From an uncultured archaeon (GTDB taxonomy: Archaea; Hadarchaeota; Hadarchaeia; Hadarchaeales; WYZ-LMO6), in assembly GCA_938074535.1 (NCBI GenBank), contig CALJER010000008.1, positions 23,523 to 87,522 of the forward strand: a stretch of DNA of 64,000 bases. Reading direction: 5' to 3'. Below are positions 1 through 15,560 of the stretch, piece by piece. The notes under the pieces were generated by a model. That model did not search any database, was not told where the DNA came from, and saw nothing but the letters and a program-made list of their open reading frames with translations. The position numbers and the translations under genes are program-made. How positions within the stretch are numbered: the first letter of the stretch is position 1; the number at the start of each line of letters is the position of its first letter.

Positions 1-327
1 CCGGAGGAGAAGGTGCGTGACAACGCGGAGGCGGAGGCCCTGGACCTCATCCTCTGGGAGGCGGTGCAGAGGCACGGAAAAAAGGTGTACGAAATTGACA
101 CGAGCGGGAGGAGAAACACCGTCTCCCTCTTCCTGGAGGCCCTGGAGGAGGGCGTCAAGCTGCCCCCGGGAGGAGTGAGGTGGCTGGAAGAGTACGTGAA
201 TCTGTGGGAGACCAGGCGCTGGAAGCCGAGGGACGGTGGAGGCGGCATCCTCGCAGTCCCCGCAGAGCGGAAGCTCAGAGACGCTGCACCTAAAGTTGAA
301 AACACGAAAGCAAAGGGCCCGCCGTAA
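1..327 (+). CDS. C-terminal fragment of a hypothetical protein; the gene begins upstream of the window
   Basis: Frame 1 is open from nucleotide 1 and ends at TAA 325-327. No family recognised. Confidence 0.3.
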   Translation, partial: PEEKVRDNAEAEALDLILWEAVQRHGKKVYEIDTSGRRNTVSLFLEALEEGVKLPPGGVRWLEEYVNLWETRRWKPRDGGGGILAVPAERKLRDAAPKVENTKAKGPP

Positions 328-328
328 A

Positions 329-604
329 ATGAAGAAAATCCTTGCTTCGGCAGTAGCGGTGCTGGTCGCGTCTGTTCTGGCGGCGGGTCTCATCCACCTG
401 AGCAAAAAAAAACCCGCCGAGGAGCTGCTGGGGCTGGGGAACCTCTACAACATGTGCGGCAACCATCCCCTCTGGCGCCAGTTCCTCATGGACAGGATAG
501 CGGGGCAGGCGCGGGGAGAGGTGGATGGAACCTCCTCGGCGGACCAGGGGACCCCGGGGACTGCTCCTGCGACTACTGCATGCAAGCCTTCAACCGTTGC
601 CTAG
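329..604 (+). CDS. Small putative membrane/secreted protein (N-terminal hydrophobic segment MKKILASAVAVLVASVLAAGL)
   Basis: ATG at 329 lies 1 nt after the upstream stop. Signal-peptide/TM-like N-terminus. No family recognised. Confidence 0.3.
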   Translation: MKKILASAVAVLVASVLAAGLIHLSKKKPAEELLGLGNLYNMCGNHPLWRQFLMDRIAGQARGEVDGTSSADQGTPGTAPATTACKPSTVA

Positions 605-616
605 CCTAACACTCCT

Positions 617-796
617 CGCCGGAGGAACTGCGGCGGCTCTGCACTCCGCGCTGGTAAACAACTTCACCTGGCTCAGCTGGAACGCCCGTAACAGCTTCGA
701 GAACATGGGCGTCACGCTCCAGGAGGCCCATATCCCGTTTGAGGTCGCCTGCAAGGGCGACGTGGTCTTAAACCGCTCACGCCGGAGGAACTGCGG
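617..796. repeat. Perfect 17-bp direct repeat CGCCGGAGGAACTGCGG (617-633 and 780-796)
   Basis: Two exact copies 163 bp apart, inside a region (about 605-1263) with no clean gene model. Confidence 0.8.
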
Positions 797-1263
797 AAGT
801 ACCGGGTCGTGGTGGTGCCCAAAGATTACGACCTCGGGCTGGAAACCCCGAACCTGCTGCAGCAGCACTCCGCCGCCGGGGGCTTCGTCCTGAAGCGAGA
901 CGACTTCGATGATTCCCAGCTCATACCCGCCCTGGGGGGTTCGGGATCGACCTCGGGCTGGGAACGCTCCGGGGGACCTCTCACTGATGGCCCACCGCGG
1001 GAATGGCTCATCCCGCTGCACATGCTCAACTACAGGTACGACAGGGGAGCAAGCGGCTTCTCGGACCTAACCGGAGTGGAGGTGACACTGACCGTCCCGG
1101 AGGGTCTCACCCTGGAGGGAAGAGTGCTGAAGGTTCTCAGCCCGGAGGGAGGGAGCACCGCTCTGGACTTCGAGGTGCGTGGGGGGAGGTCGCGTTCGCC
1201 CTCCCCAGCCTCCACCGTTACTCCCTCGCAGCGTTCGAGTGAGAAGCGGCCCGACACACCGGG

Positions 1264-2217
1264 TCAGCTCAACTCCCACTTGACCTTTTCTCCCTCCTCC
1301 ACCCTCCTCACCCTCCCCCCCTCCTCCAGGTACCTCAGATGGGCCAGGGTCTCACCGGTAGCAAACCATCTCTGAATGGGGGGGAACCTCTCCCAGGGAT
1401 CCTCGAAATCCCAGGTCATACCGGAGGCCAGCTCGTAGGCGGTTTTTCTTCCCCCCTCGAGCAGGGAGAGGACCTCCTCCGCCCTCAGGTGGTGGTGGAG
1501 CTTGAGCTCCTCCACCCTGCCCCTGAGATCCCGGAAGGGCCTCCGGTGGCCGGGGAGAACGAGATCCACTTCCATGGAAGCCACCCTCTCCAGGCTCTTC
1601 AGGTAGTCCCCCAGCGGGTTCTCCTCCTCAGAGAGGGGGGTGATGTTGGGGGTGATGTCCCCCAGCACATGGTCCCCAGAAAGGAGGAGCTTTTGATGGG
1701 GCTCGTAGAGGCAGAGATGCCCCCTCGTGTGGCCCGGAGTTGAGACGCAGACGAAGGAGAACTCCCCCACCTCTATCCTGCTTCCCTCGCCCACGAAGGT
1801 GAAGGTGGGAAGGGCGCTGGGCCCGTACAGACGCCCCGGATGGGTCTCCAGCATCCTGAGGAGCTCCTCTTCTGGGATGCCTGCGAGGAGAATCAATCCC
1901 CCCACTCCCTCCCAGGAAGCGAGGAGCTCTGATTCCGGCCTGTTGAAGTAAACGCGTGAATCCCCTGAGGCAAGGAAGGAGACCAGCCCCAGGTGGTCGG
2001 CGTGGAGGTGGGTGATGAAGAAATCCGTCTTCTGCGGATCCACCCCCAGCTCCCTCAGGGCCCGAAGAAGGACCGAGGCGCACTCCTCACGGTTCATCCC
2101 CGTATCCACCACAAGATCCCTTTCCTCACCCTTCACCACGTAGGAGTTCACCGACTTCAGGGGGCTGCGGGGCAGGGGGACCTCCACCCGGTGGAGGCCC
2201 GGCAGGACCTCCTCCAT
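1264..2217 (-). CDS. MBL-fold metallo-hydrolase with a C-terminal winged-helix-like domain
   Basis: Metallo-beta-lactamase motif THLHADHLG plus downstream His/Asp ligands. Paralogous (about 30% identity by eye) to the CDS at 61220..62140. Confidence 0.85.
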   Translation of the reverse strand: MEEVLPGLHRVEVPLPRSPLKSVNSYVVKGEERDLVVDTGMNREECASVLLRALRELGVDPQKTDFFITHLHADHLGLVSFLASGDSRVYFNRPESELLASWEGVGGLILLAGIPEEELLRMLETHPGRLYGPSALPTFTFVGEGSRIEVGEFSFVCVSTPGHTRGHLCLYEPHQKLLLSGDHVLGDITPNITPLSEEENPLGDYLKSLERVASMEVDLVLPGHRRPFRDLRGRVEELKLHHHLRAEEVLSLLEGGRKTAYELASGMTWDFEDPWERFPPIQRWFATGETLAHLRYLEEGGRVRRVEEGEKVKWELS

Positions 2218-2353
2218 CCCCCCACCTAACCCTGGGGGTATTTATGCCGAACCGTCTGGGAAGAAGTCGGGGCGAATTTTAGAGAAAACCCGGAAAACTT
2301 TTTCCTTTTCCGCCAAACACCCTTTAACCTCCTCCTTTCCCACCACCCCATAC

Positions 2354-2363
2354 CTTTATAAAG
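2354..2363 (+). promoter_or_regulatory. TATA box (CTTTATAAAG) about 25-30 nt upstream of the htpX ATG; a leaderless transcript is likely
   Basis: AT-rich octamer at the canonical archaeal distance from the start codon. Confidence 0.5.
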
Positions 2364-2386
2364 AGCCTTCCCTTTTTCTTTTTTTG

Positions 2387-3247
2387 ATGTGGATTCTTAG
2401 AACCACCCTGCTCCTGGGAGCCATGACCGGGCTCCTGCTGGTGGTGGGGCTGGGGCTGGCCTACGTGGCCGGTCTTCCCTTCCTCCCCACCCTCACGGCA
2501 GCCTTCGTGCTGGCCATGGTGATGAACCTGGTGATGTTCTTCTACGCCGACAAGTGGGTGCTGCGGATGTACAGGGCGAAACTGGTGAGCGAGGAGGAGC
2601 AGCCCACCCTCCACCGCCTCGTTTCCAGGCTGGCGGAGAGGGCGGGAATCCGAAAACCGAGGGTGGCGGTGGTTCCCATGGACGTCCCCAACGCCTTCGC
2701 CACCGGAAGGAACGACAGGAACGCGGTGGTGGCCGTGACCAGGGGGGCCATGGAGGTGCTGAAGGAGGAGGAGCTGGAGGGGGTGATAGGGCACGAGCTG
2801 GCCCACATCAAGAACCGGGACATGCTGGTGAGCACCCTGGCCGCCATCGTGGCCGGTGCCATCTCCTACCTGGCGCTGGTGGGGAGGATGCAGCTCTTCT
2901 TTGGAGGCGGCGACAGGAGGAGCGGGGGAAGCACCCTTCTTCTCCTGCTGGCCCTCATCCTCGTGCCCCTGGCCGCCGTGATGATAAGGCTGGCCGTGTC
3001 CAGGACCAGGGAATACGGGGCGGACGAGGAGGGGGCCAGGATCTCGGGCAAGCCCCTGGCCCTGGCGGCGGCCCTCAGGAGGCTGGAGGAGTACTCCCGC
3101 TCGGAGAGGATGGTGCAGGGGAATCCCTCCACCTCGAACCTCTTCATCGTCAACCCCTTCAGGGGAAGCCACCTGCTGGAGCTTTTCTCCACCCACCCCT
3201 CCACCGACAAGAGGATCCAGAGGCTGGAGGCCCTGGCAAGGGCGTGA
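2387..3247 (+). CDS. htpX: Zn-dependent protease HtpX (peptidase M48)
   Basis: N-terminal TM helices, HEXXH motif (HELAHIKNRD) and a second TM pair. The ORF-track start at 2384 is TTG; ATG at 2387 was chosen. Confidence 0.9.
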   Translation: MWILRTTLLLGAMTGLLLVVGLGLAYVAGLPFLPTLTAAFVLAMVMNLVMFFYADKWVLRMYRAKLVSEEEQPTLHRLVSRLAERAGIRKPRVAVVPMDVPNAFATGRNDRNAVVAVTRGAMEVLKEEELEGVIGHELAHIKNRDMLVSTLAAIVAGAISYLALVGRMQLFFGGGDRRSGGSTLLLLLALILVPLAAVMIRLAVSRTREYGADEEGARISGKPLALAAALRRLEEYSRSERMVQGNPSTSNLFIVNPFRGSHLLELFSTHPSTDKRIQRLEALARA

Positions 3248-3253
3248 GCGGGC

Positions 3254-3412
3254 TCAGAACATCAGGTGGAGGAAAACCACGAGCAGGATGGAGGCCAGGG
3301 AGAAGCCCACCACCGTCCTCGGGGAGACCTTTATCCCCTCACCCTCCTCCGAGAAGTACCTCATCAGACCGGCACCGCTGGGGGGCAGCCTTTCCTCCCT
3401 CCTGCGCATCAT
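3254..3412 (-). CDS. Preprotein translocase Sec61-beta / archaeal SecG (52 aa, C-terminal TM anchor)
   Basis: MMRRREERLPPSGAGLMRYFSEEGEGIKVSPRTVVGFSLASILLVVFLHLMF matches the archaeal Sec61-beta signature (GLxRYF...KxxPxxVV + TM helix). It sits inside a longer spurious ORF (3254..3640). Confidence 0.6.
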   Translation of the reverse strand: MMRRREERLPPSGAGLMRYFSEEGEGIKVSPRTVVGFSLASILLVVFLHLMF

Positions 3413-3430
3413 CCCTCTCCTCTTCCCGCA

Positions 3431-3440
3431 CCTTTTAACC
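3431..3440. promoter_or_regulatory. Possible shared TATA element (CCTTTTAACC) for the divergent leaderless genes Sec61-beta and the PIN/PhoH ATPase
   Basis: Near-palindromic AT core about 20-25 nt from ATG 3412 on the minus strand and from ATG 3464 on the plus strand. Confidence 0.4.
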
Positions 3441-3463
3441 CTTCCGGGAGGAATAGCAGTAAC

Positions 3464-4849
3464 ATGGTGAAGAGGTACCTGCCGGACGAAACCGTGCTGC
3501 TCAACGGAATGCTGAAAAGGAGGGTGGAGGAGGAAGGGGACTGCGAGGTGGTGGTGCCCAATCTCCTGCTGGCCCACCTCGAGGCCCAGGCCAGGGAGGG
3601 AAAGGACTCCGGACTGGTGGGGCTGGCCGAACTCTCCCACCTGAAGAAGCTCTCCGAGGAGGGCAGGATCAAGCTCAGCTTCTGGGGGGAGCGGGAGCTC
3701 CGCGAGGAGGGCAGCCTGAGCCGCCTGCTCAGGGAGGCCGCCGGAGAGTCGGATTCCGTCCTCCTCACCAGCGACCAGGTCACGGCGGAGCTGGCGAGGA
3801 TCGAGGGACTGAGGGTGGAGCTCCTCTCACCGCCTCCGGAGGAGAGGAAGCCCAGACTCCTGGAGTACTTCGGTCCCGACACCATGTCCGTGCACCTGAA
3901 GGCGAAGGTGAGACCCCTGGCCAAGGTGGGGAGACCCGGGAAGCTGAGGGTGCAGTACGCCGGGGAACATCCCCTGAGCGAGAGGGAGCTGAGGGAGATG
4001 GTCCACGAGATCGTGGAGCTGGCCAAGCGCGATCCCGAATGCTTCGTGGAGATAGAGAGGAAGGGCGCCACGGTAATCCAGTACAGGGAGTACAGGATAG
4101 CCATAGCCCGGCCGCCCTTCAGCGACGGCCTGGAGATCACGGCCGTGAGGCCCGTGGCCAAGGTGAGGCTGGAGGACTACAGGCTCTCGAACAAGCTGAA
4201 GGAGAGGCTGAAGGGCAGCGCGGAGGGGATCCTCATCGCCGGCCCTCCCGGCGCGGGCAAGAGCACCTTCGCCCAGGCCCTGGCGGAGTTCTACCGTTCC
4301 TCCCACAAAATCGTGAAGACCATGGAATCACCCAGGGACCTGCAGGTGGGGGACGAGATCACGCAGTACACCTCCCTGGAGGGGGACATGGAGAAGACCG
4401 CCGACATCCTCCTGCTGGTGAGGCCGGACTACACCATCTACGACGAGCTGAGGAAGACCTCCGACTTCCAGATCTTCACCGACATGAGGCTGGCCGGGGT
4501 GGGGATGGTGGGAGTGGTGCACTCCACCAGGGCCATCGATGCCGTCCAGCGCCTCATCGGGAGGGTGGAGCTGGGCATGATCCCCATGATCGTGGACACC
4601 GTCATCTTCATCAAGGAGGGAGAAATCTCGCAGGTCTACTCCCTCAGGTCCTCCATCAAGGTCCCCTCCGGGATGAGGGACGAGGACCTGGCCAGGCCCC
4701 TGGTGGAGGTGCTGGACTTCGAGACCGGGGAGCCTGTCTACGAGATTTACACCTTCGGGGAGCAGGTGGTGGTCAGCGATCTGAGGGAGCTGCGGCAGCA
4801 GGGGAGGGAGGCCCCTCCCTTCAGGTACTCCCGCAGGAGGTGGAGGTAG
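3464..4849 (+). CDS. PIN-domain / PhoH-like P-loop ATPase with C-terminal KH domain (COG1855-type)
   Basis: N-terminal PIN-like acidic residues, Walker A GPPGAGKST and a KH-like C-terminus. The upstream part of ORF 3266.. overlaps Sec61-beta and was rejected. ATG at 3464. Confidence 0.8.
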   Translation: MVKRYLPDETVLLNGMLKRRVEEEGDCEVVVPNLLLAHLEAQAREGKDSGLVGLAELSHLKKLSEEGRIKLSFWGERELREEGSLSRLLREAAGESDSVLLTSDQVTAELARIEGLRVELLSPPPEERKPRLLEYFGPDTMSVHLKAKVRPLAKVGRPGKLRVQYAGEHPLSERELREMVHEIVELAKRDPECFVEIERKGATVIQYREYRIAIARPPFSDGLEITAVRPVAKVRLEDYRLSNKLKERLKGSAEGILIAGPPGAGKSTFAQALAEFYRSSHKIVKTMESPRDLQVGDEITQYTSLEGDMEKTADILLLVRPDYTIYDELRKTSDFQIFTDMRLAGVGMVGVVHSTRAIDAVQRLIGRVELGMIPMIVDTVIFIKEGEISQVYSLRSSIKVPSGMRDEDLARPLVEVLDFETGEPVYEIYTFGEQVVVSDLRELRQQGREAPPFRYSRRRWR

Positions 4850-5351
4850 ATCCGGCCCCTCCCTGGAGGAACCTCCTCTGGACCTCCAGCACCTCCTCGC
4901 TGTTCCTCGCACGGGCATATCCCTCCAGCCGCTCCAGGTTCAGGTCGAAGAAGGAGGGCCCCCACTTGAAGGGCCTCAGCATCTCCTCCGCCTCCTCCCT
5001 GTGCCCCAGGATGAAGAGGGCCGCCGACAGGGCCTCGGCCGTGCTGAGGGTGGTGGGCCTCCCGTAGTGGGTGGGGTTGGCGGCCACCAGATAGGGAAGG
5101 ATCCTGGGCACCAGCCCCCTCGGGGGGACCTGCTCGCAGAGGTGCTTCCAGGAGCAGTCCAGGGCCGCCAGCCCCCTTCTCTCCGCGATCCCCCTGTCCT
5201 CCGGGGAGAGGGCTTTCCCGGCCCTCGGATCCAGCAGGACCGCACCCCGCGGCAGGTGGCTGAAGCGGAAAACCATCTCCACCTTGCCCAGCCTGCGCAG
5301 GCGCAGGGCGGTGCACCTCCTGGGATCGCACTCCCCCGCACCGTAGACCAC
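4821..5351 (-). CDS. tsr3: Ribosome biogenesis protein Tsr3 (18S/16S rRNA aminocarboxypropyltransferase family)
   Basis: The LRIVVYGAGECDPRRCTALRL...LSTAEALSAALFILG signature matches Tsr3/DUF367. A GTG start at 5351 with a GAGGA spacer lies 6 nt after the radical-SAM stop. Confidence 0.7.
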   Translation of the reverse strand: MVYGAGECDPRRCTALRLRRLGKVEMVFRFSHLPRGAVLLDPRAGKALSPEDRGIAERRGLAALDCSWKHLCEQVPPRGLVPRILPYLVAANPTHYGRPTTLSTAEALSAALFILGHREEAEEMLRPFKWGPSFFDLNLERLEGYARARNSEEVLEVQRRFLQGGAGSTSTSCGST

Positions 5352-5356
5352 TATCC

Positions 5357-6409
5357 TCAGAACCCTCCCCCTCCCGAACCTTTGCCCGCGTTCCCAAAGG
5401 GACACTCGGGGTCGGGGGCGGAGGGCCTCCCCTGCACCTTCAGCACCCTGGACATGCACCCGAAGCACTGGTGGAAGTGGGGGCAGGGGGAGCAGGGGGG
5501 CTCCCTCCCCTCCCTGGACTTGAACCTGCGGATGAGCTCCGAGCCCCTCACTTTCTCCCAGGCCCTCCTCAGGCTCTCCTCCGGGTAGCGGGAAAGGGTG
5601 AGAGAGGGAGGGGAGAACATGCAGGGGAGGATCCCACCGTCCGGGGCCAGGTAGAGGGTGGTCCCGCAGGCACATCCCCTCACCTCCGGAATGGTTATCC
5701 CGCTCCTCCCGCCGGGGAGGGAGACACCCTCCCTCTCGGCGAAGGCCCAGAGGAAGGGGGCATCGTAGTAGACCTCCACCCCCCAGTCCCTGCCGTAGAT
5801 CAGGCGCATGGCCCGGAGGTGGTCCCGGGGGGAAAGACCGTAGGCCCTGTAGTAGGGGTCCTCGCCGCCGTCCCTGGGCTGGAGGGGGATGAAGGTCACG
5901 AACTTCCCCCCCTGCCTCCTGACGAACTCCACCGTTTCCCCCATCTGGTGCAGGTTCTTCCTGGAGAGAACCACCGTGACACCGTGGAAGATTCCCTCCC
6001 TGCTGGCCCTCTCCACGCCCCGCTGGAAGGACTGAAAGCTGGCCCCCTCCTTCGTCTCCTCGTAGACCTCCCTGCTCGCCCCGTCCATGGAGAAAACCAC
6101 CCTCACTCCCCTCCTTCCCAGCTCCCTGGCGAGCTCCTCCCCGAGCAGGGAGCCGTTGGTGATGAGGTAGAGGTCCAGCCCCTCCATCTCCGAGAGGAGG
6201 GGGAGCAGGCCCTCCCTCAGGAGGGGCTCTCCTCCCTCCAGGATTACCCAGTCCGGCCTCAGCTCCACTATTTCCTCCGCCAGAGGAAGAAGGAGCTCTC
6301 TGGGCATCTCCTCCGCCTTCTCCGCCAGGCAGTGCCTGCACCTCAGGTTGCACCTGGAAGTTATGGCCCAGTCAACGAAGCGCGGCCCCATCCTCCCACC
6401 AAAACCCAC
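5357..6409 (-). CDS. Radical SAM protein with C-terminal SPASM/twitch Cys cluster
   Basis: CNLRCRHC (CxxxCxxC) near the N-terminus. C-terminal CACGTTLYLAPDGGILPC and CSPCPHFHQCFGC clusters. Start is GTG 6409 or ATG 6391. Confidence 0.8.
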   Translation of the reverse strand: MGFGGRMGPRFVDWAITSRCNLRCRHCLAEKAEEMPRELLLPLAEEIVELRPDWVILEGGEPLLREGLLPLLSEMEGLDLYLITNGSLLGEELARELGRRGVRVVFSMDGASREVYEETKEGASFQSFQRGVERASREGIFHGVTVVLSRKNLHQMGETVEFVRRQGGKFVTFIPLQPRDGGEDPYYRAYGLSPRDHLRAMRLIYGRDWGVEVYYDAPFLWAFAEREGVSLPGGRSGITIPEVRGCACGTTLYLAPDGGILPCMFSPPSLTLSRYPEESLRRAWEKVRGSELIRRFKSREGREPPCSPCPHFHQCFGCMSRVLKVQGRPSAPDPECPFGNAGKGSGGGGF

Positions 6410-6433
6410 CGAGCACCTCCTATAAAAGCGAAG

Positions 6434-6835
6434 CTACTCGAGCTCCACCACCACCCAGCCGCGCTTCCTGAGCTCCTCCGCCACGAAACGCCGGTGGCAG
6501 ATGGAAGAGAGCGGCTCCACGCACATCACACAAACCCTCCTCCTCTCCGCCAGCTTCTCGAGTTTCTCCATCCCCCTGGCGAACTCCTCCGTGCGCATGA
6601 ACCTCCTGTATCCCCCCCTCCTGTAGCCCCCAAGCTCGGGCAGGTGGGAGTAGGAGAGCCCCAGGGAGGGGAGGGACCTCTCCAGCTCCTCCTTTTTGAA
6701 CTCTTCCCTCTTGGAGGTGGGAAAAGCCCTGACGTCCACCACCGCCTCCACCCGGGAGCGACGCAGGAGCTCCGCGAGCTGAGGCAGGGTCTTGTTCCCG
6801 TAACCCACCGTCCAAATCCTCTTCTCCCCGCCCAC
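6434..6835 (-). CDS. DUF488 family protein
   Basis: IWTVGYGNKTLPQLAELL N-terminus and a C-terminal CHR motif, typical of DUF488. Confidence 0.65.
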   Translation of the reverse strand: MGGEKRIWTVGYGNKTLPQLAELLRRSRVEAVVDVRAFPTSKREEFKKEELERSLPSLGLSYSHLPELGGYRRGGYRRFMRTEEFARGMEKLEKLAERRRVCVMCVEPLSSICHRRFVAEELRKRGWVVVELE

Positions 6836-6879
6836 CGGGTTATATCGAGAAAGGGGGAATTTAAAGGGAGGGCGGTGGT

Positions 6880-11357: not shown

Positions 11358-11870
11358 ATGGTCAGCCCAAAACCCTCGATGGACGAGTACTTCCTGGAGC
11401 TGGCCAAGGCGGTGAGCCTGAGGTCCACCTGCCTGAGGAGGAAATTCGGGGCCATCATCGTGAGGGACGGGGTGGTGCTGAGCTCAGGCTACAACGGAGC
11501 GGCGCGGAAGGTAAGGGAGTGCAGGGAGGTGGGCATCTGCCTCAAGGAGCTGGTGAAGGCGCCCCACGGGGAGGGCTACGATGTCTGCCCGGCCGTCCAT
11601 GCCGAGGCCAACGCCCTCGTCAACGCCGCCAGATCAGGCGTGAGCATCCTGGGGGGAACCATGTACCTGCACGGCCAGGACATGCAGGGGAGGGTGGTGG
11701 AGGGGAAGCCCTGCACCTTCTGCCGGAGGCTCCTGATAAACTCCGGCATCGAGAAAATCGTGTTCAGGAGGGAGGACGGCACGATGGGCTGCTACGACAT
11801 CAAGGAGTGGGTGAGGGACGAGTCGCTGGACCACCAGAGGAAGGTCCAGCAGTACACGGGTAAGGGGTAG
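11358..11870 (+). CDS. dCMP/cytidine deaminase family protein (zinc-binding HAE...PCxxC)
   Basis: VHAEANAL and PCTFCRRL motifs. Confidence 0.8.
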   Translation: MVSPKPSMDEYFLELAKAVSLRSTCLRRKFGAIIVRDGVVLSSGYNGAARKVRECREVGICLKELVKAPHGEGYDVCPAVHAEANALVNAARSGVSILGGTMYLHGQDMQGRVVEGKPCTFCRRLLINSGIEKIVFRREDGTMGCYDIKEWVRDESLDHQRKVQQYTGKG

Positions 11871-11871
11871 T

Positions 11872-12564
11872 TCAGAGGTACCTGCTGTCCTCCGGGTACT
11901 TGGAGTAGACGTAGTTCAGCAGGTCCCTGAGCCTCATCTCGTTGAACTTCTTCAGCTCCTCCATCTTCTTCCTGACCTCCTCCGGCAGGGTGCTGAGGAA
12001 CTCCTCCGCCAGTTTTTCTCCCCTGGCGGTCAGGGAGCAGGACACCACCTCAGCGCCTTCCCTCTCCACCTCCACCAGCCCCGCCTTCTCCAGCTCCAGC
12101 ACGGTGTCGGACACCTCCACGGAGTACGGGCCGTGGAGGTGGGGCAGGAAGCGGAAGGGGAGGGAGTCCACCCCCTGCTCCCTCTTGAGGAGGAAGAGGA
12201 GCTTCTGGAGCCTCACGCTCCCCTCCACTTCCCCCCCCAAGGTGCGGAGGAGAACCGAAACCCACTTCTCCCTTTCCCCCACCTTCCTCTCCCTCCCCTT
12301 CGACGGTCTGGAAACCGCCGACATCTCCTGCTTCAGGAGGATGGCCATCTCCACCCCCTGGGGGGTGAGCCTCAGGATCCTCCGGAAGGGCCACACCTTG
12401 GACTCCTCCTCCTCGATCAGGCCCTCCTTCATGAGCTCCCTGATGCGCGTCTCCACCGTGAGGGAGCTCCCCTTCACCTCGGCCTGAAGTTCCCTGACGT
12501 GCTTTGGCCCCCGGAGGAGGCTGAGGAGAATCTCTGGGGCCTTGCTTCTCCTCAACCTGTACAT
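11872..12564 (-). CDS. Two-domain winged-helix regulator (N-terminal wHTH; C-terminal KLQKLLFL...GPY motif resembling Panacea/DUF4065)
   Basis: The N-terminus LSLLRGPKHVRELQAEV...LIEEEE is wHTH-like. The C-terminal RLQKLLFLLKREQG...FRFLPHLHGPYSVEV resembles the DUF4065 consensus. Divergent from nrdG-nrdD. Confidence 0.5.
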   Translation of the reverse strand: MYRLRRSKAPEILLSLLRGPKHVRELQAEVKGSSLTVETRIRELMKEGLIEEEESKVWPFRRILRLTPQGVEMAILLKQEMSAVSRPSKGRERKVGEREKWVSVLLRTLGGEVEGSVRLQKLLFLLKREQGVDSLPFRFLPHLHGPYSVEVSDTVLELEKAGLVEVEREGAEVVSCSLTARGEKLAEEFLSTLPEEVRKKMEELKKFNEMRLRDLLNYVYSKYPEDSRYL

Positions 12565-12744
12565 TCAGAGAATGTTACAGGAAATGTAACGTTTATACCT
12601 TACCCTGCCGCTCCCAGCTCCTGAGCTGACCTTCTGTGTCCGCTCTGCCCTGTATGGCACACCAATACCATATTCTACAACACCACAATAACGTTTTTAA
12701 GAAGCGTTACGTGTTTTAAAAATGATAACACGGAGGGAGGTTGG
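12565..12744. promoter_or_regulatory. AT-rich divergent promoter region with two TATA boxes, each abutted by a GTAACG/CGTTAC motif
   Basis: TTTATAC (12592-12598) is about 30 nt from the regulator start; TTTTAAAAAT (12714-12723) is about 25 nt from nrdG TTG 12745. GTAACG occurs at 12586-12591, TAACG at 12690-12694 and CGTTACG at 12704-12710. Inverted repeat TGTTACA-N5-TGTAAC at 12573-12590. Confidence 0.55.
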
Positions 12745-13491
12745 TTGGGGGTTCTGCTCGAAGAAGTGGTGACCTTCCCTCCCCCCCTAGAGCCCGTGTG
12801 GGGGGGCTTCCAGAAGCTCTCTTTGCTGGACTACCCCGCAAAGGTGGCCTCGGTGCTCTTCGTGAGGGGGTGCAACTTTCGATGCCCCTTCTGCTACAAC
12901 ACCGAGCTGGTCGGGGGACCGCCCGAAAAGGAGCTCCCCTGGAAGGAGATCCTGGGATACCTGAAGAAGAGGAAGGAGTGGCTGGACGGAGTGGTCATCA
13001 CGGGTGGCGAACCCACCCTCTACTCGGGGCTTCCGGGGTACCTGAGGGAGCTGAAGGGGATGGGGCTGAGCGTGAAGCTCGACACCAACGGCTCCAACCC
13101 GGACATGCTGGGGGAGCTCCTGAGGGAGGGCCTGGTGGACTACGTGGCCATGGACGTGAAGGCGCCGCTGAGGGAGGAGGCGTACGCCAGGGCGGCGGGG
13201 GTGAAGGTCCGCCTGGAGGACGTGAGGAGGAGCCTCTCCCTTCTCCTCTCCTCCGGGGTGGAGTACGAGCTCAGGACCACCGTGGTGCCTACCCTGCTCG
13301 GGGAGAAGGACCTCTTGGAGATAGCGGAGGAGATAAGGGGGGCCAGGAGGTACTACCTGCAGCAGTTCAGGCGCACCTCCACCCACGTGGACGAGCGCTT
13401 CTCCCAGATCCACCCCTACCCCAGGGAGTTCCTGGAGGAGGTCGCGAGGCGGATCTCGGGCTGCTTCGGTAAGTGCGGGGTGAGGGGATGA
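12745..13491 (+). CDS. nrdG: Anaerobic ribonucleoside-triphosphate reductase activating protein (radical SAM)
   Basis: CNFRCPFC cluster and the LLDYPAKVASVLFVRGCN signature. TTG start. Its TGA overlaps the nrdD ATG (ATGA). Confidence 0.8.
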   Translation: MGVLLEEVVTFPPPLEPVWGGFQKLSLLDYPAKVASVLFVRGCNFRCPFCYNTELVGGPPEKELPWKEILGYLKKRKEWLDGVVITGGEPTLYSGLPGYLRELKGMGLSVKLDTNGSNPDMLGELLREGLVDYVAMDVKAPLREEAYARAAGVKVRLEDVRRSLSLLLSSGVEYELRTTVVPTLLGEKDLLEIAEEIRGARRYYLQQFRRTSTHVDERFSQIHPYPREFLEEVARRISGCFGKCGVRG

Positions 13492-15560
13492 TCAAGAAGC
13501 TCAGGAAGAGGGACGGGACGCTGCAGGAGTTCGAGCCGGACAGGATAGGGGAGGCCATAAGGAAGGCGGCGGAGGCGCAGGGGCTCTTGGACTTCGAGGG
13601 GGAGGCGAGGAGGCTGCAGGGGCTGGTGGTGCGCAGGCTGGAGGAGAAGGGGTACGGGGAGGAGAGGCCCCCGGACGTGGAGGGGATACAGGACGAGGTG
13701 GAGGAAGTGCTGAGGGAGGAGGGCTACGGGACGCTGGCGGAGAGGTACCACGAGTACAGGAGGAGGCACGACGAGCTCAGGAGGAGCAGGAGCACGGTGT
13801 TCGACGTGGGGAAGATGGTGGAGGAGTTCATAGGGTACAGGGACTGGAGGGTGAGGGAGAACGCCAACCTCAGGCCTTCTATTTCTTCCATGATGTTCAA
13901 CTCGGCGGGGGCGGTGAACGCCAGGTACCTCCTGGACAAGGTCTACCCGCCGGAGGTCAGCGACGCCCACACGGACGGGGACCTGCACCTCCACGACCTC
14001 TACCAGGGCGTCTGCGGGTACTGCTGCGGGCACTCGATGGAGGACATACTGACGAAGGGGCTGGTGAGCGTGGGGAACAACCCCCACTCCAACCCTCCGA
14101 AGCACCTGGACGTGGCCCTGATGCAGGCGGTGAACTACATAGGGGTGATGACGCAGGAGTGGGCGGGGGCGCAGGCCTTCTCCTGGGTGGACGCCTATTT
14201 GGCGCCCTTCATCAGGGAGGACGGGCTGAGCTACAGGCAGCTCAAGCAGCTCCTCCAGATGTTCGTGTACAACCTGAACGTGACCTCCAGGTGGGGTGGG
14301 CAGAGCCCCTTCTCCAACGTGACGCTGGCCTGCGGGGTGCCGGAGCCCCTGAGGGACAGGCCGGCGGTGGTGGGGGGGAGAACCCTGGACAGGACGTACG
14401 AGGAGTACGAGGAGGAAATAGAGATGTTCGACAAAGCCTTCCTCGAGGTGCTGCTCGAGGGGGACGCAGCGGGCAGGCCCTTCACCTTCCCCATTCCCAC
14501 CTTCGCCATCACCGGGGACTTCCCCTGGGAGGACGGGCTCAGCAGCCTCCTCTTTGGGGTGGCGGCGAAGTACGGGCTGCCCTACTTCCAGAACTTCGTG
14601 AGGAGCGACCTGAGCCCCTGGCAGGTCTATTCCATGTGCTGCAGGCTCTCCCTGGACCTGAGGGAGCTGCAGAGGAACGTGACGGGGGGGCTCTTCGGGT
14701 CCAGCCCGAAGACGGGGAGCGTGGGCGTGGTCACCATCAACCTCTCCAGGGCGGGGTACCTGGCGAAGGGGAGCGAGGAGGAGCTCTTCAGGAGGCTGAG
14801 GTACATGTGCATCCTGGCCGGGAGGGCGCTGGAGCACAAGAGGAGGATCGTGGAGAGGAACATCCAGGCGGGCCTCCTCCCGTACACGAAGGAGTACTTC
14901 GGGGACCTGAGCAGGCACTTCTCCACCATAGGGGTGGTGGGGGGGCACGAGATGTGCCTGAACATGGGGATAGAGGGGGGAATAGCGAGCAGGGAGGGGG
15001 CGGAGCTGTGCAGGAGGGTGCTGGAGTTCCTCAGGGGGGAGTGCAGGAGGCTGCAGGAGGAGACCGGGCACCTCTACAACCTGGAGGCCACGCCGGCGGA
15101 GGGGGTGAGCTACAGGCTGGCAAGGCTGGACAGGAGGAAGTTCGGGGCCTCCATACGCACGAGCGGGGAGAGGGAGCCCTTCTACACCAACTCCACCCAG
15201 CTGCCGGTGGACTCCGACCTGGACCTGGTGGACGCGCTCAGGCACCAGGAGCCCCTCCAGACCCTGTACACGGGGGGAACGGTGTTCCACATCTACCTGG
15301 GAGAGAGCCTGGAGGAGGGGGAGAGCTGCAGGAGCCTCATGAGGAAGGTCACCTCCAGGACCAGGCTGCCCTACTTCACCCTCACGCCCACCTACTCCAT
15401 ATGCGGCGGCCACGGGCTGCTGAGGGGGGAGCAGCCCTCCTGCCCGGTGTGCGGGAGGGAGACGGACGTGTACTCCAGGGTGGTGGGGTACTACCGACCG
15501 GTCAAGAACTGGAACGCAGGGAAGCAGGAGGAGTTCAGGCTGAGGAGGAAATACAGCTGA
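13488..15560 (+). CDS. nrdD: Anaerobic ribonucleoside-triphosphate reductase, class III (glycyl radical enzyme)
   Basis: ATP-cone N-terminus, a C-terminal Zn ribbon (C...C...CPVCG) and the glycyl-radical motif RVVGYYRPV. Confidence 0.9.
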   Translation: MIKKLRKRDGTLQEFEPDRIGEAIRKAAEAQGLLDFEGEARRLQGLVVRRLEEKGYGEERPPDVEGIQDEVEEVLREEGYGTLAERYHEYRRRHDELRRSRSTVFDVGKMVEEFIGYRDWRVRENANLRPSISSMMFNSAGAVNARYLLDKVYPPEVSDAHTDGDLHLHDLYQGVCGYCCGHSMEDILTKGLVSVGNNPHSNPPKHLDVALMQAVNYIGVMTQEWAGAQAFSWVDAYLAPFIREDGLSYRQLKQLLQMFVYNLNVTSRWGGQSPFSNVTLACGVPEPLRDRPAVVGGRTLDRTYEEYEEEIEMFDKAFLEVLLEGDAAGRPFTFPIPTFAITGDFPWEDGLSSLLFGVAAKYGLPYFQNFVRSDLSPWQVYSMCCRLSLDLRELQRNVTGGLFGSSPKTGSVGVVTINLSRAGYLAKGSEEELFRRLRYMCILAGRALEHKRRIVERNIQAGLLPYTKEYFGDLSRHFSTIGVVGGHEMCLNMGIEGGIASREGAELCRRVLEFLRGECRRLQEETGHLYNLEATPAEGVSYRLARLDRRKFGASIRTSGEREPFYTNSTQLPVDSDLDLVDALRHQEPLQTLYTGGTVFHIYLGESLEEGESCRSLMRKVTSRTRLPYFTLTPTYSICGGHGLLRGEQPSCPVCGRETDVYSRVVGYYRPVKNWNAGKQEEFRLRRKYS

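Follow-up and report, generated by a model that had tools for sequence, protein, structure and literature searches.

A gene for a 230-aa protein lies divergent from the anaerobic ribonucleotide reductase (RNR) genes nrdG and nrdD in a 64-kb stretch of DNA from an uncultured Hadarchaeales archaeon (GCA_938074535.1, contig CALJER010000008.1), here called the window. We propose that this protein is probably a dedicated, autoregulated transcription factor of the Hadarchaeota RNR operon, most likely acting as a repressor. Very likely it represents a self-regulating switch for deoxynucleoside triphosphate (dNTP) synthesis that had not been described before and is unrelated to NrdR. All de novo synthesis of dNTPs passes through RNR, whose transcriptional regulation has been worked out well only in the case of the bacterial NrdR; our literature search turned up no description of a regulator dedicated to RNR in archaea. 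An earlier note on this DNA had already suggested an autoregulated regulator of the anaerobic RNR operon, and the synteny and the conserved palindrome described below support that suggestion. The elements that carry the argument are the following.

11872-12564, minus strand: regulator gene, an open reading frame (ORF) of 230 aa with almost no predicted 5' leader; entry P0001 is 100% identical to its product
12574-12590: operator 1 (putative), GTTACAGGAAATGTAAC, a perfect palindrome GTTAC-N7-GTAAC between the regulator TATA box and start codon
12592-12597, minus strand: regulator TATA box TATAAA, adjoining operator 1; GTTTATAC does not vary within the clade alignment
12745-13491, plus strand: nrdG, anaerobic RNR activating enzyme of the radical S-adenosylmethionine type (NCBIfam TIGR02495 NrdG2, 1.6e-64, 216.8 bits against a cut-off of 131)
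13473-15560, plus strand: nrdD, class III ribonucleoside-triphosphate reductase with an N-terminal ATP-cone (Pfam NRDD 2.6e-172, ATP-cone 1.1e-13; NCBIfam NF006126, 893.7 bits)

The two reductase genes overlap by 19 nt and therefore form one operon. The spacer between the regulator and nrdG (12565-12744) is 180 bp long and has a GC content of 45%, against 62% for the window. Its size, the TATA boxes and the motifs quoted in the earlier note, including TAACG and the inverted repeat TGTTACA-N5-TGTAAC (12573-12590), are all found where that note placed them: TATAAACGTTAC is the reverse complement of 12586-12597 in the regulator promoter, and on the nrdG side CGTTACGTG (12705-12713) stands immediately ahead of TTTTAAAAA (12714-12722). 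The note had taken GTAACG as the motif common to both promoters. The string is indeed present at both, but the 7 copies of the hexamer in the window amount to no enrichment (4.8 are expected in 64 kb, and 7 was reached in 21 of 100 shuffles), and we dropped the hexamer as the functional unit in favor of a 17-bp palindrome. Exact GTTAC-N7-GTAAC occurs a single time in the 64 kb, and with up to one mismatch there are 2 matches where 0.15 would be expected. When a weight matrix built from 31 orthologous sites was scanned over the window, the scores were 23.7 bits at 12574-12590, 6.2 bits at 12713-12729 and 3.1 bits at 12706-12722, so that the 180-bp spacer holds three of the four top matches (ranks 1, 2, and 4). 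The earlier note had named three checks, namely recurrence of the motif upstream of orthologous nrd operons, its background frequency, and regulator-nrd synteny in relatives. For the first two, the palindrome with up to one mismatch was counted 31 times in 4.8 kb of regulator-nrdG spacers vs once in 155 kb of flanking DNA (position 2591 of locus L007, one mismatch), and no other good candidate for a further regulon site was seen in the window. Operator 1 in its extended form reads TGTTACA-N5-TGTAACG (12573-12591). Archaeal TATA boxes usually lie ~26 nt from the transcription start; the regulator transcript is thus predicted to be near-leaderless, starting ~4-5 nt ahead of the ATG (12564), with operator 1 at about -22 to -6.

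As for the third check, synteny holds in all Hadarchaeota loci examined, down to 40% identity. In a scan of one genome per species, full-length copies of the regulator were found only in Hadarchaeota (16 loci, L008-L023). Among 18 non-redundant Hadarchaeota loci (40-71% identity), analyzed by tblastn with the NrdG, NrdD, and dCMP deaminase of the window, the regulator is divergent from nrdG-nrdD in all 18; in one of them, L020, nrdD directly adjoins the regulator and nrdG was not detected. An operator 1 site with up to one mismatch is present in 17 of the 18 loci and degenerate in L021. It stands beside a TATA-like element in most of them (for example GTAAC-G-TTTATAC or GTAAC-A-TTTAAATA), an adjacency of 1-3 nt that was judged by eye and is weak or unclear in L014 and L022, and its distance to the regulator ATG is usually ~8-10 nt, with a range of 1 to ~22 nt where measurable. 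In eight loci from more distant clades a second perfect palindrome (operator 2) is located 31-33 bp from operator 1, centre to centre, and ends 19-26 nt before the start of nrdG (nrdD in L020). The order there is regulator, operator, TATA, operator, nrdG, the two operators flanking one AT-rich block; their spacing of about three helical turns around a shared TATA block suggests a cooperative dimer of dimers. The window and its five closest relatives have a longer spacer, in which operator 1 and the TATA box are invariant while the 5 central spacer bases of the palindrome vary. In this six-member clade the only perfect site is the one at the regulator's own promoter, and in the window the nrdG-side site is 139 bp from operator 1 and degenerate. 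The elements between the regulator promoter and nrdG are as follows.

12670-12678, mid-spacer: block ATATTCTAC, whose ATATT is the same in each of the six clade members despite large indels around it; it could be a second promoter element or the site of another factor
12688-12693: extra half-site ATAACG (TAACG at 12689-12693), just 5' of the AT-rich block and kept in 3 of 6 clade members
12694-12701, plus strand: TTTTTAAG, candidate nrdG TATA box; each of the six clade members has an AT-rich TATA-like block here (L009: TTTATAAA)
12706-12729: nrdG-proximal composite operator (putative), GTTAC at 12706-12710, 2 nt, then the degenerate palindrome GTTTT-N7-ATAAC at 12713-12729
12732-12740, plus strand: Shine-Dalgarno-like GGAGGGAGG, 4 nt ahead of the nrdG TTG start

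The composite operator overlaps an alternative TATA-like run, TTTTAAAAA; its block GTTACGYGTTTTAAAAAYGATAACRCGG is kept in 5 of 6 clade members, and L003 has the variant GTTAC-N7-ATAAC with one mismatch. GGAGG is invariant in the clade alignment and the full GGAGGGAGG is common to five of the six. We consider TTTTTAAG more likely than TTTTAAAAA to be the nrdG TATA box, because L015 has the same TTTTTAAG together with a perfect palindrome directly before nrdG, and because the strong Shine-Dalgarno sequence before the TTG argues for a leadered nrdG mRNA and hence for the upstream TATA box at 12694-12701. Transcription from TTTTTAAG is predicted to start near 12723-12725 and would give a leader of ~20 nt that includes the Shine-Dalgarno sequence; the GTTAC elements would then lie between TATA and transcription start and not at the position of the transcription factor B (TFB) recognition element (BRE). 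The earlier note had seen a GTAACG-type motif at the BRE of the nrdG TATA box; the string is there, but its reading as a BRE is doubtful. The choice of TATA box also bears on the best surviving alternative, in which the regulator is a dual-function factor that represses its own promoter and activates or fine-tunes nrdGD by binding at BRE/TATA and recruiting TFB or the TATA-binding protein (TBP). With TTTTAAAAA as the nrdG TATA box, the BRE position would be taken up by the GTTAC at 12706-12710; the nrdG-side palindrome is immediately followed by a TATA-like run in L005 (GCTTTTATTT) and L021 (ACTTATATG), and the site architecture of the window clade at nrdG is unlike that at the regulator promoter. 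Most clades, however, place the nrdG-side palindrome between a TATA-like block and the start codon, which is the typical position for a repressor, and the L015 arrangement and the Shine-Dalgarno sequence speak for the same geometry in the window, so we regard a dual function as unlikely. In L015 a 1.8-kb insertion (3184-4900) with small ORFs of 156 and 103 aa parts the regulator from nrdG; nrdG keeps its own TTTTTAAG and palindrome, the regulator side retains two palindromes, and the operator-2 promoter now appears to serve the inserted genes. A second inverted repeat at the nrdG side, CGYGTT-N11-AACRCG (12708-12731), shows T-A, T-G, and C-G variation across six relatives. As an RNA hairpin it was rejected, since it folds no better than shuffled sequences (z = -0.65), and Rfam gave no match in 12400-12900; the repeat may simply reflect a symmetric degenerate operator.

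The palindrome was also found with relatives of the regulator in other gene neighborhoods. P0045, a homologue sharing 43% identity with the whole length of the window protein, is encoded divergently from a class II RNR gene (Ribonuc_red_lgN/lgC and TSCPD domains; locus L231, 7-2383). Its spacer reads GGTAC-N7-GTAAC, ACTTATAAG, and GTTAC-N7-GTAAC, followed by 14 nt to the regulator ATG, and the two boxes are 32 bp apart, centre to centre. As a candidate RNR factor the regulator is, as far as seen, confined to Hadarchaeota and a sister group with a class II RNR link. Full-length paralogues with 39-43% identity are encoded in defence-like operons (L063, 5001-8309; L064, 5001-8369; L230, 2993-5960; L232, 500-3465). 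In one type the paralogue gene comes first, followed by a PD-(D/E)xK nuclease and a superfamily 1 helicase (AAA_11/12), near type I restriction-modification genes, methylases and a TnpB-like gene; in the other it adjoins genes for a ubiquitin-like protein and an E1-like ThiF/BilD_N protein, which are co-directional upstream in L230 and divergent in L232. Here too boxes follow TATA-like elements, with ATATATAAA-T-GTTAC-GC-GTTAC-N7-GTATC in L232 and ATTAC-N7-GTAAA after its own TATA-like element in L063; L232 repeats the arrangement at the nrdG side of the window, with an extra GTTAC 7 nt upstream of the palindrome. The box therefore follows the protein family through four gene contexts, as expected if the winged helix of the family recognizes it. 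In a neighbor-joining tree (midpoint-rooted and of low rigor), all five context-checked nrdGD-linked proteins fall in one clade, the class II RNR pair is sister to it, and the defence-linked paralogues fall outside. The class II RNR gene of L231 has a leader of ~150 nt (2164-2320) between operator and start codon, inside which a 34-aa ORF was called; Rfam gave no match in this leader, so no cobalamin riboswitch was detected.

Scans with the double palindrome alone covered metagenomes and viral contigs. In metagenomes at least 120 stretches matched; the matches listed are mostly coding tandem repeats, and among them are at least five further regulator-nrdG loci. At least ~20 short low-GC contigs among the matches listed carry two copies of GTTAC-N7-GTAAC joined by an AT-rich TATA-like linker (they include L103, L105, L106, L107, L118, L119, L126, L127, L130, L164, L169, L172, L173, and L185), and no gene of the regulator family is present on the contig fragments examined. 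In several of these lookalikes the next small ORF begins immediately after the boxes (e.g., METK...), and L126 (boxes at 4798-4846) resembles a virus in that it encodes an HNH endonuclease, a PAPS reductase, DNA methyltransferases, and a collagen-like tail fibre. A scan of viral contigs gave 44 matches, essentially all of them coding repeats and none with a regulator homologue, so a viral link is unsupported.

The protein itself has two domains, for which the coding segments are:

12313-12540, minus strand: N-terminal HxlR/YodB/QsrR-type winged helix-turn-helix (wHTH), residues 9-84, the presumed DNA-binding domain
11881-12276, minus strand: C-terminal DarG-C/SocA-Panacea/'YwgA'-like domain, residues 97-228, a presumed sensor or oligomerisation module

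We consider the protein a credible DNA binder. It matches Pfam HxlR (PF01638) with 27.7 bits against a cut-off of 20.8, and 15 of 15 family members match HxlR as well. YodB is matched with 1e-6, and the N-terminal domain of the AlphaFold2 model (predicted local distance difference test score 87, predicted template modeling score 0.72; two domains with a low-confidence linker) has QsrR, YodB, and HxlR as structural matches. Residues S33, T36, and R40 of the recognition helix do not vary among 15 aligned family members. Pfam and NCBIfam searches found an HxlR/ArsR-type wHTH and DUF4364, and neither an ATP-cone nor a Zn-ribbon. No cysteine occupies an invariant or nearly invariant column of the 15-member alignment, so that the redox-sensing mode of YodB and QsrR is not applicable. 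In PADLOC the C-terminal domain matches PDC-M19A (6.5e-14, a type I specificity-subunit C-terminal fusion) and DarG (1.3e-7), and the NCBIfam DarG model matches it with 1.2e-4; the two DarG models cover residues 91-207 and 101-207 of the protein and model positions 157-279 only, and no macrodomain match was found in the window protein. Its predicted structure matches the fold of the DarG C-terminal toxin-binding domain. The earlier note had likened this domain to Panacea/DUF4065. PF13274 has no match in the window protein (E ≤ 0.1) and is not listed for the 15 family members (E ≤ 1), but the likeness has indirect support from the DarG models, the predicted structure and relatives recruited by the family profile, of which P0019 passes the PF13274 cut-off (26.8 vs 25.7 bits) and P0021 (2.9e-4) and P0018 (9.4e-3) stay below threshold. 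The two winged helices of that note were partly right: besides the N-terminal wHTH there is a winged-helix-like sub-domain within the C-terminal domain (residues 150-214, weak DUF4364/PadR-type matches). About 40 close full-length relatives were found. The two-domain family is small, with 51 representatives at E ≤ 1e-30 (~45 of them full-length), and the C-terminal domain alone has 925 at E ≤ 1e-10.

Bacterial relatives that consist of the C-terminal domain only ('YwgA'-like, ~190 aa; L024-L062) occur in Planctomycetota, Acidobacteriota, and other phyla. There the 'YwgA'-like gene heads a conserved four-gene operon (e.g., from L030 5001-5435 on) with a ~200-aa membrane protein and proteins of ~140 and ~440 aa; the partners have no Pfam or PADLOC name and give no functional clue, and our literature search on 'YwgA' found nothing useful. 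The operon may be an undescribed system. In L047, from a Rhodothermales metagenome-assembled genome, a YwgA/Panacea-like domain is fused to DUF488 (294 aa), and this fusion probably corresponds to the PADLOC candidate PDC-M19A. The proteins of the Bacteroidota loci L050 and L056 belong to the same cluster and are about as long; of the three, that of L047 is the one scanned for domains. The match begins at 5001 in L047, L050, and L056, and in each a conserved unnamed protein of ~272-294 aa comes next.

The mechanism that we propose for the Hadarchaeota regulator runs as follows. With the HxlR-type winged helices of its N-terminal domains, a dimer would contact the 17-bp palindrome (T)GTTAC(A)-N5-(T)GTAAC(A). 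One site would be that directly downstream of the regulator TATA box, covering roughly -22 to -6; the other would be at the nrdG core promoter, where the palindrome is perfect in most relatives and degenerate, with extra half-sites, in the window. Binding there would keep RNA polymerase, or TBP/TFB, from being recruited, and both divergent promoters would be repressed together. The DarG-C/Panacea-like domain may serve in oligomerisation, or may sense the signal (a nucleotide or a protein partner) that releases repression. The weak nrdG site of the window suggests that regulation of nrdGD may need cooperative binding or looping from operator 1, and in the window clade this regulation is perhaps looser than in other clades.

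One further version, which we hold to be improbable, is that an antitoxin/defence-type sensor was exapted in an archaeal lineage and became the master switch that sets dNTP synthesis, through class III RNR in Hadarchaeota and class II RNR in the sister group, with its C-terminal domain sensing NrdD/NrdG or a viral component and RNR shut-off or induction being tied to infection or replication stress; if true, it would represent a non-NrdR, protein-sensing form of RNR control with a convergently evolved two-box operator. In a related and quite unlikely version the protein would be an antitoxin/defence-type switch whose C-terminal domain binds a protein (NrdD/NrdG or a viral one) and not a metabolite, so that RNR would respond to infection or stress and not to dNTP homeostasis. 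The matches to the DarG C-terminal domain and PDC-M19A, the SocA_Panacea matches of relatives, the full-length paralogues in defence-island contexts (nuclease-helicase; ubiquitin-like-E1-like), and the nesting of the RNR-linked clade among defence-linked paralogues in the tree would fit such a switch. Yet none of the RNR-linked loci has a toxin-like gene next to the regulator; the neighbors there are nrdG, nrdD, dCMP deaminase, and ThyX, and the association is vertically conserved over a phylum and not patchy. That the palindromes are bound by another factor or are generic promoter elements, with the wHTH gene functionally unlinked to nrdGD, is highly improbable: binding of the motif by the regulator is a prediction from sequence, and double palindromes occur on unrelated metagenomic contigs with no detectable regulator on the fragments examined, but the motif is absent from other promoters of the window and nearly so from the flanks, it co-occurs with the regulator family in four gene contexts with synteny in 18 of 18 loci, and the unrelated metagenomic and viral matches are mostly coding tandem repeats.

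Several points weigh against our preferred reading of a dedicated repressor of the RNR operon. The sign of regulation and the binding are deduced from sequence geometry, and the C-terminal domain has no assignable effector. The weight matrix favors AT-rich spacers and thereby inflates scores in AT-rich intergenic DNA. If TTTTAAAAA were the nrdG TATA box, the GTTAC at the BRE position could mean activation or competition with TFB. In a minimal view there would be autoregulation only, with nrdGD affected by mere proximity, given the nrdG-side scores of 6.2 and 3.1 bits vs 23.7 bits at operator 1. Finally, the paralogues with similar boxes in unrelated contexts suggest that the box taken by itself marks the regulator gene rather than RNR.

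On its other side the regulator has the following neighbor in the window.

11358-11870: dCMP deaminase gene, converging on the regulator

No palindrome is present in the 31-bp gap upstream of this gene. The neighbor on this side varies among the relatives (dCMP deaminase, ThyX with dCMP deaminase, a luciferase-like gene, and others); a convergent dCMP deaminase gene stands beside the regulator of the window and beside that of 7 of the 18 non-redundant loci, and L005 has ThyX with dCMP deaminase (5708-6840). Genes of the dNTP pathway are thus clustered at the regulator. The NrdD of the window has 695 aa and is without an intein. The orthologues of several close relatives hold one or two inteins (L002, 1-4127; L003, 960-4112; L008, ~1-4102), with products of 1050 and more than 1420 aa, LAGLIDADG/Intein_splicing matches, and split tblastn alignments.

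The functionally closest analogue of the regulator is NrdR. Both would be RNR-dedicated, and NrdR is often autoregulated, as sequence suggests for the regulator here. NrdR binds two partially palindromic 16-bp boxes with a linker of 15-16 bp (PMC13584703) that overlap the transcription start (PMC9110341), and two 17-bp palindromes spaced 31-33 bp from centre to centre are located at the core promoter in eight Hadarchaeota loci and at the class II RNR locus L231. The proteins are nevertheless non-homologous, one being an HxlR-type wHTH with a DarG-C/Panacea-like domain and the other a Zn-ribbon with an ATP-cone; the box sequences are unrelated, the window sites are 139 bp apart with the second degenerate, and nucleotide sensing by the window regulator is not even predicted. 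The statement of the earlier note that archaea lack NrdR should read that NrdR is rare in archaea (PMC9110341). The only ATP-cone found in the window is that of NrdD itself, and tblastn of the 64 kb with this ATP-cone and an approximate Escherichia coli NrdR sequence, which is a weak test, found no NrdR.

HxlR/DUF24 regulators are dimeric wHTH proteins that act on palindromic operators. The N-terminal domain resembles those of YodB, QsrR, HypR, and HxlR in sequence and predicted structure, but the regulator is without the conserved sensing cysteine of YodB, QsrR, and HypR and has an extra C-terminal domain of 130 residues, an archaeal host, and an RNR target. Archaeal repressors that bind between TATA and transcription start include MDR1, LrpA, Phr, and members of the TrmB family. 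The palindrome directly downstream of TATA over the predicted start and the apparent autoregulation are similar, an analogy of geometry only, as both the protein family and the target differ. The combination of an HTH with Panacea resembles autoregulating antitoxins. Panacea (PF13274) is an antitoxin domain (PMC8832971), and the profile and the fold of the C-terminal domain resemble those of DarG-C and SocA/PanA. Unlike DarG, the regulator has no macrodomain, and unlike SocA and PanA it has no adjacent toxin; it lies between nrdG (divergent) and dCMP deaminase (convergent), and the orthologous loci are flanked by the same or other metabolic genes, which places it in housekeeping dNTP synthesis.

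The locus provides a concrete candidate for an archaeal RNR regulator, with a defined protein, a 17-bp operator and a promoter geometry, together with conservation across a phylum and an independent link to a second RNR class. It suggests that an antitoxin/defence-type domain was recruited to regulate core metabolism, and that the operator design of NrdR, with two boxes three helical turns apart, may have arisen again independently. Should the reading be confirmed, RNR regulons of uncultivated archaea could be annotated with the help of the motif, and the protein could serve to ask which signal sets the archaeal dNTP supply.

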